This document shows positions 30,537 through 52,153 of a stretch of 64,000 nucleotides of DNA, one piece after another; position 1 is the stretch's first letter, and each line of letters begins with the position of its first letter. This stretch comes from Lingula anatina. Its lineage: Eukaryota; Animalia; Brachiopoda. Below the pieces are notes generated by a model. That model was not told where the DNA came from. It ran no database searches and was given only the letters and a program-made list of their open reading frames with translations. A program made the translations under genes and the position numbers. The stretch covers positions 6,196,587-6,260,586 of the forward strand of contig CM120648.1 of the NCBI GenBank assembly GCA_051362555.1, read 5' to 3'.

Positions 30537-33151
30537 TTAATACATTGGTCTGAGGTATTTCTGTGAGTCGTATCTACTCGTCCTGTCTTGGCTGCTTGGT
30601 CTAAAGGACCGTTGAGGGGGCCAGTCATCGAATGCAGTATAATCAACATACTCGTAATATGGCGTGTCCTTGGCCCTGAACAGTGATCTCTGACGATTAA
30701 ACTCCCTTGCATTATGCTTATCGCGAGCAGATGACCGTTTACTGCTTCCACCATGATGGAAAACATCAGGCAACCCAGGTACTGCTATAGAGCGTATGGA
30801 ACGTCCATAGCTTCCGTTAGACATGTAGGGATTGTGGGCTGTGGCCAGATATGGATCTGGGACTGCCGTATGGCTGATGTACTGCCGTACCACGTCGGAG
30901 TTACTCACTGTGGAACTGCTGTAGGTACGACGTCTTTTGTGTTTCTTTGTATCAGTGGCACGTCTCTTTAAAATACAGCAGACAATTGCAGTGACGACAA
31001 TCAAAAGGATCAGAAGACCGATCATGATTGATAAAATTATCACCATTTCCTCCCAGTCTGTGGACAGTTGATTTTCACAGCGACCCCCCCTAAAATTAAC
31101 GGGGCAGTTACACGTGGCCAGTCCATCGCTCGTTTCCATGCACACTCCGCCATTTAAGCACAAGTCTGTCCGACAGACTTGACCGCAGGCTCGTCCAGGG
31201 AAGAACCCAACATTTGCTGAGTTGTCCCTGTAATTGATGTTACACTGGCATGTATAGCCACCATCCAGGTTGGTACACTGGGCGTAGAGTGAACAGTCAT
31301 TAGTATCAGTAGAGTTACACTCATCGAAATCGGTGACAGTAACCGTGTCGACAGTAACATTAGGGCTGTTCTGCAAACCTTGGGTGAGGGTTTCCTGTAC
31401 TTGGGTGGTATTCACCACTGGCTCAGTCTGGTTGTCAAAGGTGAGCTGTACGTCTGCTATGATACTCCCTAATATAAACCTCCTTACTCTACAACGCACT
31501 TTGGCCTCGAAGGGGGTCCCCCTGTAACTCCTCACAATAACCTGACACACGGTCAGCTCCAGTTGTATGAAGGTTGGGCTGGTTGGGGTTTCCAATTCTG
31601 GGCTAAAAATAGCAGGCTGGCTGTTAAGGGCCGTGATACGCACCCGCGCAAACACATACACTCTGGTGGTGACTAGCGCCCTGGCTGTGGTGGTGGTTGT
31701 CAAGCTTGTGGTCGTTGAGGGTGCCACAGTGGTGGTTTTCAGTGTTGTTTGTGATGTAGTGGTTGGAGCTGCAGTGGTCTCTGTGGTTGTGATTGGTGCT
31801 GCTGCTGTTGTCTCTGTTGTAGTGGTTGGGGCTGCTGTGGTTGTGGTTGGTGCTGTTGTGGTTGTAATTGGAGCTACTGTGGTAGTGGTTGTAGTTGGAG
31901 CTGCTGTGGTTGTGGGTAGAGCTGCTGTGGTTGTAGTTGGAGCTGCTGTGGTTGTGGTTGTAGTTGGAGCTGCTGTGGTTGTAGTTGGAGCTGCTGTGTT
32001 TGTGGTTGGAGCTGCTGTGTTTGTGGTTGGAGCTGCTGTGGTTGTAGTTGGAGCTGTTGAGGTTGTAGTTAGAGCTGCTGTGGTTGAAGTTGGAGCTGCT
32101 GTGGTTGTGGTCGTGGTTGGAGCTGCTGTGGTTGTAGTTGTAGTTGGAGCTGCTGTGGTTGTAGTTGGAGCTGTTGTGGTTGTAGTTAGAGCTGCTGTGG
32201 TTGAAGTTGGAGCTGCTGTGGTTGTGGTTGTAGTTGGAGCTGCTGTGGTTGTAGTTGGAGCTGCTGTGGTTGTGGTTGTAGTTGGAGCTGCTGTGGTTGT
32301 GGTTGGAGCTGCTGTGGTTGTGGTTGTAGGTGGAGCTGCTGTGGTTGTAGTTGGAGCTGTTGAGGTTGTAGTTAGAGCTGCTGTGGTTGAAGTTGGAGCT
32401 GCTGTGGTTGTGGTCGTGGTTGGAGCTGCTGTGGTTGTGGTTGTAGGTGGAGCTGCTGTGGTTGTGGATGGAGCTGCTGTGGTTGTGATGGGAGCTGTTG
32501 TGGTTGTGATTGGAGCTGCTGTGGTTGAAGTTGGAGCTGCTGTGGTTGTGGTTGTAGTTGGAGCTGCTGTGGTTGTAGTTGGAGCTGCTGTGGTTGTGGT
32601 TGTAGTTGGAGCTGCTGTGGTTGTAGTTGGAGCTGTTGTGGTTGTAGTTAGAGCTGCTGTGGTTGAAGTTGGAGCTGCTGTGGTTGTGGTTGTAGTTGGA
32701 GCTGCTGTGGTTGTAGTTGGAGCTGCTGTGGTTGTGGTTGTAGTTGGAGCTGCTGTGGTTGTAGTTGGAGCTGCTGTGGTTGTGGTTGGAGCTGCTGTGG
32801 TTGTAGGTGGAGCTGCTGTGGTTGTGGTTGGAGCTTCTGTGGTTGTGGTTGGAGCTGCGGTGGTTGTGGTTGGAGCTGCTGTGGCTGTAGTTGGAGCTGC
32901 TGTGGTTGTGGTCGTGGTTGGAGCTGCTGTGGTTGTGATTGGAGCTGCTGTGGTTGTGGTTGGAGCTGCTGTGGCTGTAGTTGGAGCTGCTGTGGTTGTG
33001 GTCGTGGTTGGAGCTGCTGTGGTTGTGATTGGAGCTGCTGTGGTTGTGGTTGGAGCTGCTGTGGTTGTAGTTGGAGCTGCTGTGGTTGTGGTTCTAGCTG
33101 CTGTGGTTGGAGCTGCTGTGGTTGGTGACACTGTTGTTGATGTTGTTTCAA
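30537..33151 (-). CDS. Terminal exon: Thr-rich mucin stalk, SEA domain, Ca-binding EGF, EGF, TM helix, cytoplasmic tail
   Basis: (AAPTTTT)n. SEA with FSPELETPTSPTF...FILGSIIAD. DFDECNSTDTNDCSLYAQCTNLDGGYTCQC. CLNGGVC...CNCPVNFRGGRCE. TM MVIILSIMIGLLILLIVVTAIVCCIL followed by KRR. Confidence 0.92.
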
Positions 33152-51100: not shown

Positions 51101-52153
51101 TATGGCTTTTATTGAGATCTCACCTTCGACAACATGATGTGTTAATTTACAAGAACGACTGATATCCAAAGCGGGAACTTGGGAGAAGTCCAGTTCAGAC
51201 AAGACTTGTCACGACCAGAAAGTATGGTTTATATAGAATTTAATAGTGTGTTGGTTGCGAGACCAGAAAGATCTAAGAAAATCCTCGCCCCAATGACCCA
51301 TGAAAATGGAAAAAAACAACAGTTCCAAAGATTAAGAGATGTTCAAACTGAGAGGGTAGACAATGCCCACGGGTTTTGATTTAATGCGTGAGTGTATGGC
51401 AGTAAGGGAAGTGGGGTGGAGGAGAGGGGTGGAGAGGGGTGGGAAGAGGGTTAGGGGGAGAAGGAGATGGGATAGGGGGTGAAGGAGATGGGATACGGGT
51501 TGAAGGGCAGGGGGTTGAGGGTGAAGGGGAGGGGGGATATACATGTATGTGACGGGACAATAGCAGGGGCGGATCCAGAAATATTTCCTGACAGTCTTCC
51601 ATATTATATTTGGTTATCCATTTTCCATTTTTGACCGTCTTCCGACAGAAAAAATTAGATACCCTTCAATGTAAACTAGAAAATCTGACCGTCTTCCGGA
51701 AGACCCAGAAGACGGCCTAAATCCGCCCCTGAATAGTACACTAAAATAGCAGGTTACTCAATTGGTATTATAGATTTTGTCAGTGGTGTCAATGTGAAAT
51801 ATAAATTAGTGTGTCATGCCCAGTTAAGTCTGCAAACTGAGAAGAAGGAATGTTGCTTGTAGGAATAAGACGCTGTCACGCACACGTGGGGTCAAATACG
51901 TTTCAGAGAGAAAAAGAGAGAGAGAGAAAGAGAGAGAGGAGTGTATGCGTTTGTGTGTGCCGATAATAAAAAAAGGAGGGTGTGGCGAAGAAACCGAAAG
52001 AACGGAATGCAAAAGCGCTAGAGAGAGAAACAATCAAAATGCAAGCGTCTTCTTACCTTCCTCCTCTCCATCTTTCACATCAACCGGAGTCACAATCCCC
52101 AGAAACGCAATAAATACACAAAAGGCAAAAGCATTCCCATTCCCTCTGCCCAT
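30537..52153 (-). CDS. Chimeric type I membrane protein (~2,200 aa, ~30 exons): M12B/ADAMTS-like metalloprotease + CxYGD repeats + 2x(CAP-EGF-ShKT-like) + mucin + SEA + 2 EGF + TM
   Basis: Signal exon 52153-52057 (MGRGNGNAFAFCVFIAFLGIVTP). Prodomain exons 48024-46901. RFKR furin site then VELLIVID (~46500-46624). PPHDHAMLFT, HELGHNLGAYHD across exons ~43767-43661/43385-43218, Met-turn YIMA, PGQ..TPHDQC, GTSCGNHKWC. CxYGD exons 41549-39600. CAP cassettes 39430-33698. Terminal exon 33151-30537. Every junction I checked is GT-AG with matching phase. Confidence 0.8.
31760..33125 (-). repeat. Coding minisatellite (21/27-bp units encoding AAPTTTT/AAPTTTTTT)
   Basis: GGAGCTGCTGTGGTTGT(A/G)GTT units on the + strand. 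Variant block AAPTSTTAALTTT(T/S)TAP recurs as a higher-order repeat. Confidence 0.95.
33690..39435 (-). repeat. ~3-kb intragenic tandem duplication of the CAP-EGF-ShKT-like cassette, introns included
   Basis: 33690-36400 vs 36690-39435. CAP exons LHNYYR, GQNLY, WHSE, CGHYTQ, VVWDTSYRLGCA and GNY occur in both. The ORF-track translations of 35701-35970 and 38648-38917 are identical, and introns align. Confidence 0.95.
39809..39992. mobile_element. Harbinger-like foldback MITE
   Basis: GGCCCCAGTTTCACAAA..ACTTAAGTCAG-TTCCCTGGC vs GCCAGGGAACCTGACTTAAGTTTTTATTTGTGAAACCAGGGCC. TSD not clean. Confidence 0.65.
40251..40344. repeat. (GA)n microsatellite
   Basis: Pure GA run. Similar (CT)n/(GA)n runs at ~38956-39017, 45568-45617, 49484-49528 and 50296-50344. 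Confidence 0.95.
40742..40993 (-). repeat. 49-bp minisatellite (~5 copies) built from an exon end plus splice donor
   Basis: Unit ACAGCTAGTACCTACCAGATACACCGGTATATGCCTGCTGGCATGTCTT. The rightmost copy is the real exon end CCKTCQEAYTGISG|gtgggt. Confidence 0.9.
51410..51537 (+). other. G-rich purine tract with G-quadruplex potential (intron 1 of the protease-mucin gene)
   Basis: Many GGG/GGGG runs separated by short spacers. Confidence 0.5.
51564..51730. mobile_element. Short hAT-like MITE
   Basis: Termini CAGGGGCGGATCCAG / CTAAATCCGCCCCTG. Only a 5-bp flank repeat (AATAG) is visible. Confidence 0.55.

Follow-up and report, generated by a model that had tools for sequence, protein, structure and literature searches.

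We analysed a 64,000-nt window of contig CM120648.1 from the brachiopod Lingula anatina and found on its minus strand, at 52153..30537, a mosaic gene in which an ADAMTS-type metalloprotease, two cassettes resembling cysteine-rich secretory proteins (CRISPs) and a transmembrane mucin follow one another in a single reading frame. In the reading that we prefer, and to which we give a probability of about 0.6, one spliced gene encodes a type I membrane protein whose furin-activated protease stands on an O-glycosylated stalk, is released at a SEA domain and cuts glycoproteins at an exposed surface. That the locus is a real, expressed mosaic gene is well supported, and a single gene very probably encodes the whole chimera.

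Sequence reading and scripted translation gave 32 exons from an ATG at 52153 to a stop codon at 30537. All 31 introns are GT-AG; the exon phases are compatible, as an earlier sequence-only reading of the locus had maintained, and the 6,798 nt so joined contain no stop codon other than the terminal one. An alternative donor of exon 16, 9 nt later, fits both the RefSeq counterpart and the family pattern and yields a protein of 2,268 residues; the two in-frame donors, 40963 and 40954, lie amid a 49-bp tandem repeat (5.1 copies, window 40743-40992) in which the 3' end of exon 16 is copied into the intron with extra GT donors. The N-terminal part of the protein comprises a signal peptide, a prodomain, the M12B domain, an ADAMTS cysteine-rich 2 domain, four PLAC-like repeats and a linker rich in proline, threonine and serine (PTS). 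The remainder continues with a CAP-EGF-ShK-like cassette, a PTS linker, a second such cassette, the mucin, SEA, EGF_CA and EGF domains, a transmembrane (TM) helix and a tail (Table 1). All motifs named in the sequence-only reading are present, but it missed the ADAMTS cysteine-rich domain and the EGF of the cassettes and counted a single CAP-ShK module where there are two. The SEA, EGF_CA, EGF, CAP and ADAMTS_CR_2 models pass Pfam's curated cut-offs on the window exons, and Reprolysin, ADAMTS_CR_2, CAP and SEA do so on a near-identical protein, P0001.

P0001 (XP_013409946.1), the one protein matched by a search with the last exon, is an uncharacterised L. anatina RefSeq model of 1,912 residues, apparently a prediction and not a sequenced cDNA, with a domain order identical to that of the window protein, both CAP-EGF-ShK cassettes included. 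The two proteins differ by 31 substitutions outside the mucin repeat and the RefSeq mucin is shorter by ~360 residues, so XP_013409946.1 comes from another haplotype, another individual or a very close paralogue. Seventeen of the 31 substitutions fall in the first 243 residues (window 46086-52153: signal, prodomain and protease start) and only 5 within residues 244-1390. The search with this last, SEA-TM exon covered longer proteins, returned P0001 alone of 2,686 candidates and missed the Lingula paralogue P0002; it is hence insensitive. Within introns 14-31 we found no ATG-started exon with a signal-like core (best hydropathy 1.08, versus 3.07 in exon 1), which disfavours separate CAP or mucin genes, and the 64-kb window holds no additional protease or CAP copy. 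A single fused protein, as had been proposed, is therefore favoured by the stop-free 32-exon frame, XP_013409946.1, P0002 and the lack of an internal signal exon.

Seven of nine raw-read RNA runs were mapped to the window, X7 twice, 6-30% of each run being read; the mapping of exon 32 (mucin-SEA-TM) covered its first 152 bases. Runs X7, X8 and X9, all from one study, were covered thinly, with reads in 21, 23 and 24 of 30 bins, across protease, repeat and CAP exons alike, and X1, X2, X3 and X4 had reads in 8, 9, 9 and 2 bins, mostly at interspersed repeats. The protease, PLAC and CAP modules vary together between runs, supporting a single gene. Spliced reads joined 41549-41937 (4, 2 and 1 reads), 37221-37486 (8, 1 and 3 reads), 36859-37119 (2 + 2 reads) and 43027-43218 (3 reads of X9), and no exon-skipping joint between model exons is among the joints listed. 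Reads at 33000-33505 may derive from other mucin genes. Short interspersed repeats at 39800-39990, 45230-45450 and 51560-51735 (introns 17, 7 and 1) draw many reads from other transcripts; two of the three have inverted-repeat joints and resemble miniature inverted-repeat transposable elements.

Table 1. Features of the mosaic gene and of its neighbourhood (window positions)
Feature	Position	Strand	Basis
Exon 1: start codon and signal peptide	52057..52153	-	h-region mean hydropathy 3.07
Prodomain, exons 2-5, no cysteine; furin-type sites REKR (46994-46983) and RFKR (46570-46559)	46559..48024	-	
M12B (reprolysin) catalytic domain, exons 5-12	43007..46546	-	Pfam Reprolysin, 47.5 bits on P0001
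ADAMTS cysteine-rich 2 (disintegrin-like) domain, exons 12-14	41965..42955	-	Pfam ADAMTS_CR_2, E 1.6e-15 on P0001
Four six-cysteine PLAC-like repeats (Cx[YF]GD...CCxxC), one per exon 15-18	39630..41544	-	Own profile
Exon 18: last PLAC-like repeat, 65-residue PTS linker and start of CAP 1 in a single frame	39318..39715	-	Sequence
Cassette 1: CAP-EGF-ShK-like, exons 18-24	36695..39410	-	Pfam CAP; colinear with P0131
Cassette 2: PTS linker-CAP-EGF-ShK-like, exons 25-31, recent tandem copy	33699..36528	-	Also in P0001
Mucin stalk, 490 residues, 56% Thr, 24% Ala, 12% Pro	31683..33151	-	Composition
SEA domain, G-S-I-I motif at 31469-31458	31329..31664	-	Pfam SEA, 32.6 bits, cut-off 26.4
Calcium-binding EGF and EGF	31074..31331	-	Pfam EGF_CA, EGF
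Transmembrane helix	30969..31046	-	Hydropathy 3.32 on P0001
143-residue cytoplasmic tail with basic stop-transfer stretch, several tyrosines and stop codon	30537..30968	-	
582-residue basic open reading frame	3035-4780	-	No Pfam match
D-glucuronyl C5-epimerase	6258-10166	+	Pfam
CARD-caspase	13746-18019	-	Pfam
Acetyl-CoA hydrolase/transferase	55891-63925	+	Pfam

By its sequence, the protease head belongs to the ADAMTS proteins without thrombospondin repeats, a type represented by MIG-17 and Sona. The zinc motif HELGHNLGAYHD (residues 383-394) is split over exons 10 and 11 (43677-43364), belongs to the HExxHxxGxxH type and retains its catalytic Glu; the Met-turn YIM is at residues 406-408 (43330-43322). 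These intact M12B motifs, already noticed together with the furin-type site RFKR (residues 201-204), predict zinc-dependent activity, and we add a second furin-type site, REKR, at residues 152-155. Residues 295-555 align to chains of ADAMTS1 and ADAMTS13. Canonical ADAMTS proteins are defined by thrombospondin type 1 (TSP1) repeats and a spacer and by secretion without a TM helix, whereas P0001 has no Pfam TSP1 match and the window protein carries a TM helix. The TSP1 motif W..W..CS..C is found in 0 of 145 family matches, and a looser pattern occurs 3-4 times per control ADAMTS and in neither P0001 nor P0002. The head is not an ADAM either: P0001 gave no Disintegrin or ADAM_CR Pfam match, the prodomain has no cysteine, and the TM helix and EGF, though ADAM-like, are part of a mucin-type stalk. 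What we do find is M12B, a disintegrin-like domain and PLAC, the last identified by our own profile and cysteine spacing, in the absence of TSP1. MIG-17 is described as a signal-pro-metalloprotease-disintegrin-PLAC protein (PMC4856095) that lacks TSP1 (PMC11844652), and Sona is described as most similar to MIG-17 (PMC4989167). Two fly TSP1-less proteins scored 110 bits against 101 for ADAMTS10, a slight margin, and the best ESM Atlas match, a lead only, is a nematode MIG-17 cluster (score 0.77). The Lingula protein shares with MIG-17 and Sona the signal, prodomain, M12B and disintegrin-like/cysteine-rich domains and the lack of TSP1, and with MIG-17 also PLAC. MIG-17 and Sona are secreted, however, and the Lingula protein adds four PLAC-like repeats, two CAP-EGF-ShK cassettes, mucin, SEA, EGFs, a TM helix and a tail; MIG-17 removes its own prodomain, whereas the Lingula protein has furin-type sites instead.

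Four CxYGD repeats had been described behind the protease. Their number stands, but the first reads CTFGD, and with a spacing of C-x8-C-xn-C-xn-CCxxC they are PLAC-like and not of a new type. We built a profile from 27 Cx[YF]G[DN]...CCxxC repeats of eight family members, whose cysteine spacing (8,n,n,0,2) matches that of ADAMTS PLAC domains; both ADAMTS PLAC domains tried reached 18.9 bits with it, and four CxxTCxxC ShK domains, like the window protein's own two ShK-like exons, came out below zero. The Pfam PLAC model matched neither P0001 nor the window exons. An assignment of the repeats to ShK was considered, exon 16 having a sub-threshold Pfam ShK match, and was rejected on the profile scores. 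The last repeat and the CAP start LHNYYR do share one stop-free exon, as had been reported, with a PTS stretch between them.

The mucin-SEA-TM part of the earlier description is likewise present, and mucin, SEA, both EGFs, TM helix and tail all lie inside one exon of 2,615 nt (33151-30537). The PTS-rich stalk, SEA domain and TM helix are those of a SEA transmembrane mucin, a type to which the MUC3/13/17 layout likewise belongs, and the stalk is predicted to be O-glycosylated. Each of the 11 SEA-bearing family members has the motif G-S-[IVL]-[IVL], and Pfam SEA independently matches P0001, P0065, P0076, P0099 and P0119; self-cleavage at the predicted G-S site is thus a reasonable expectation. 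The SEA domain of MUC1 cleaves at GSVVV, where the Lingula protein reads GSII, and the outer subunit of MUC1 is described as released once the complex is disrupted (PMC9564314). SEA-type transmembrane mucins as a group also share with the Lingula protein a PTS stalk, EGF, TM helix and tyrosine-bearing tail, but they have no catalytic head. A membrane-held protease is known from matriptase, whose self-cleaved SEA, with halves held non-covalently, is reported to tether the protease until a further cut sheds it (PMC5567652; also PMC6586460). Self-cleavage is only predicted here, and matriptase-type enzymes are type II serine proteases without a mucin stalk and without sequence kinship to the Lingula protein.

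The chassis of protease, mucin, SEA and TM helix is not unique to this gene. We scanned 1.84 billion representatives with residues 201-1070 of P0001, obtained 341 matches at E 1e-30 or better and annotated the best 150; many entries are fragments, so the counts are lower bounds. Among these 150, 145 carry the protease, of which at least 131 have PLAC-like repeats, at least 134 HExxHxxxxxH, at least 35 a TM helix behind the protease, at least 19 PTS and TM, at least 8 SEA and at least 5 PTS, SEA and TM together. The 20 entries identified by species come from brachiopods, bivalves, gastropods, annelids and nemerteans. Besides P0001, SEA-bearing members are Lingula P0002, proteins of Sinanodonta, Crassostrea, Saccostrea, Dreissena (two), Mactra and Mytilus (two), and P0076. 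P0002 (RefSeq 'mucin-5AC') is a protease-PLAC-mucin-SEA-EGF-EGF-TM protein without CAP, 57% identical to the window protein over the protease core and 41% over SEA-EGF-EGF-TM. It and the uncharacterised bivalve models P0007, P0009, P0010, P0050, P0065, P0089, P0099 and P0119 share with the window protein the order M12B-cysteine-rich-PLAC-like-SEA (with G-S)-TM, usually with a PTS stalk, but they have no CAP-EGF-ShK. Six members (P0004 and P0005 of Mytilus, P0032, P0036, P0129 and P0156) end in a short hydrophobic C-terminus suggestive of glycosylphosphatidylinositol anchors, and membrane attachment within the family may have taken several forms.

Between Lingula and the bivalves, identity over the SEA-to-TM region is only 17-29%. 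Protease trees were computed with FastTree (134 rows, those without the full zinc-site region left out) and, on a 34-row subset, with IQ-TREE; neither included MIG-17 or Sona. The three proteases from Lingula fall together with a set that includes annelid sequences (SH-like approximate likelihood ratio test 96), apart from the clade holding the bivalve SEA forms (96). Forcing the Lingula and bivalve stalked forms together was rejected (approximately unbiased test, p-AU 0.002), in a comparison whose constrained group was chosen after the tree was seen and whose outgroups are long branches. Two gains of the stalk, or one old gain followed by many losses, both fit. Protease-on-mucin-SEA is apparently an undescribed lophotrochozoan variant of TSP1-less ADAMTS: no paper describing the architecture was found by title or start of abstract in full-text literature largely outside subscription journals.

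What sets this gene apart is the CAP insert. Only P0001 itself, one of the 145 protease-bearing matches, has CAP, and among 649 candidates of 1,051-3,346 residues the long CAP-bearing relatives were P0001 and two unrelated plant or algal proteins; within what was searched, no other gene has the doubled CAP-EGF-ShK insert. The fusion of three family architectures that had been inferred is not a one-off event, since the head is of a known type and the chassis recurs in bivalves. The CAP domains pass Pfam and match GLIPR1 (E 7.8e-29) and venom CRISPs (E ~1e-29), and as in CRISPs and GLIPR1 they precede a cysteine-rich tail ending in an ShK-like unit, but the ShK-like exons fall below the Pfam cut-off (E 0.047 and 0.11; 14.7 bits versus 20.9 required) and an EGF is inserted between. 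Unlike a stand-alone secreted CRISP, the cassettes are embedded, doubled and tethered in a type I membrane protein and have no signal exon of their own. The CAP histidines, the W..E glutamate and the GEN residues play a role in metal binding; both window CAPs keep two histidines and the glutamate and read GQN for the GEN of GLIPR1. In the second CAP (exon 27-28 junction, 35317/35006) the window haplotype has YYELGNY, a Pro-to-Leu change in the conserved CAP2 motif, against YYEPGNY in the first copy and in both RefSeq copies. Elsewhere, P0054 (Octopus vulgaris, 1,934 residues) has six tandem CAP domains, and P0137 (spider) and P0142 have two each.

The best CAP-EGF match is P0131, a stand-alone secreted Lingula protein of 354 residues that is colinear with the cassette from CAP through the ShK-like end (36% identity, E 9e-63) and also has GQN. 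P0002 has nothing between its last PLAC-like repeat and the mucin; in the window, exon 18 leads from PLAC through PTS into the CAP start, and the mucin is taken up again in exon 32. The most economical history, we infer, is that an ancestral P0002-like Lingula gene took up the body of a P0131-like gene inside its mucin exon and that tandem duplication followed. Over 861 coding bases the two cassettes show 18 differences (12 synonymous and 6 non-synonymous codons), with exons 93-100% and paired introns 84-97% identical and changed in length, a pattern that fits a real, recent, constrained or homogenised duplicate. The Lingula genome paper describes frequent domain shuffling (PMC4595640).

From the exon structure, domains, intact zinc motif, furin-type sites, G-S motif and TM helix, all observed, we propose the following course. 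Furin would remove the prodomain at RFKR; since the prodomain has no cysteine, it has no cysteine switch. If extended, the 490-residue Thr-rich stalk would span ~120-180 nm (0.25-0.36 nm per residue), lifting the head off the cell surface. SEA would cut itself at Gly-Ser, with the halves staying non-covalently bound as in MUC1 and matriptase, and the head would be shed when they are pulled or cleaved apart. The protease would cut extracellular glycoproteins of mucus or secreted matrix at an exposed epithelium, a role that we consider somewhat better than even, and the PLAC and CAP-EGF-ShK modules may act as binding or targeting sites.

Several points weigh against this account. Exons 17, 24 and 31 each end in phase 1, so isoforms lacking one or both cassettes are possible, and among the joints listed there is no read joint for exons 15-16, 16-17, 17-18, 18-19, 24-25 or 31-32, which include the PLAC-to-PLAC and ShK-to-mucin junctions and have most weight for the fusion (four further spliced joints lie outside those listed). 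Read depth is at most ~1 per bin, and the reads carry several mismatches to the window, so that their source may be a different population or a closely related paralogue. Five of the eleven SEA-bearing proteins went into the SEA profile, a choice that favours recovery of the motif, and a single-sequence fold prediction for SEA-EGF (predicted local distance difference test 44) was unusable. The phase-1 symmetry, permitting skips from exon 17 to 32, 17 to 25 and 24 to 32, the missing joints at the cassette borders and a CAP fusion seen in one species only, within the sequences searched, would suit a full chimera that is a minor or non-existent transcript, its CAP block nested or skipped and its main products a P0002-like protease-mucin and/or shorter secreted forms. 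We regard this as improbable: exon 18 holds PLAC and CAP in one frame, the CAP exons lack their own signal exon, have read and splice depths comparable to the protease exons and show no skip joint among those listed, and the RefSeq model builds the same chimera. Near-identical exons and a reported heterozygosity of 1.6% (PMC4595640) might raise the suspicion that the assembly set two haplotypes side by side and so created the second cassette, but such an artefact is largely refuted by the divergent lengths and sequences of the paired introns and by a RefSeq model that has both copies with the same copy-specific residues, and we give it almost no credence.

Other alternatives accept the protein and dispute its role. 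In matriptase the cleaved SEA is described as holding tightly, with shedding requiring a second cut (PMC5567652), so the G-S motif is no proof of release. The same protein could stay on the membrane for good and, in the manner of a MIG-17 fixed to the cell, remodel basement membrane, periostracum or shell matrix, with SEA as a spacer and no shedding; MIG-17 and Sona are described as acting on basement membrane or matrix, the stalked forms occur in shelled brachiopods and bivalves, and mucin genes are reported from the Lingula mantle (PMC4595640). Against this stand the G-S motif kept throughout the SEA-bearing relatives and the apical-mucin-like stalk, and we judge such a remodeller unlikely. 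A long Thr-rich stalk followed by SEA-EGF-TM is a typical feature of apical mucins. Sperm of other animals carry ADAMs, CRISPs and SEA proteins, and the strong expression differences between RNA runs would be compatible with a gamete-surface protein joining ADAM-like and CRISP-like fertilisation roles; the few substitutions in residues 244-1390 between the two versions are unlike many gamete-recognition proteins, and this is less probable still than a minor transcript.

The neighbouring genes are given in Table 1. A further locus near 20477-22249 is by resemblance a likely tRNA pseudouridine synthase; the one exon tried had no Pfam match. The window also contains a 146-bp tandem array (9.8 copies, 95% match, 24553-25997) and 160-bp and ~400-bp-spaced repeats at 3-1009.

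The textbook division has ADAMTS proteins secreted and ADAMs anchored, yet in Lingula and in several bivalves a mucin-SEA stalk fixes an ADAMTS-type head to the membrane. Tentatively, there may be an undescribed lophotrochozoan class of enzyme-tipped transmembrane mucins, in which TSP1-less ADAMTS proteases were set on a self-cleaving mucin-SEA stalk at least twice (in brachiopods and bivalves) and are released by force, and whose stalk is a landing site for effector modules such as the doubled CRISP-like cassette. The relatives, several of them from commercially important bivalves, carry misleading database names (mucin-5AC, streptococcal hemagglutinin-like, serine-rich adhesin). The Lingula gene offers a clean, datable case of exon shuffling, with chassis (P0002), donor family (P0131) and recent duplication all in one genome. 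It also singles out one protein that may carry out controlled proteolysis in the mucus or secreted matrix of filter-feeding animals.

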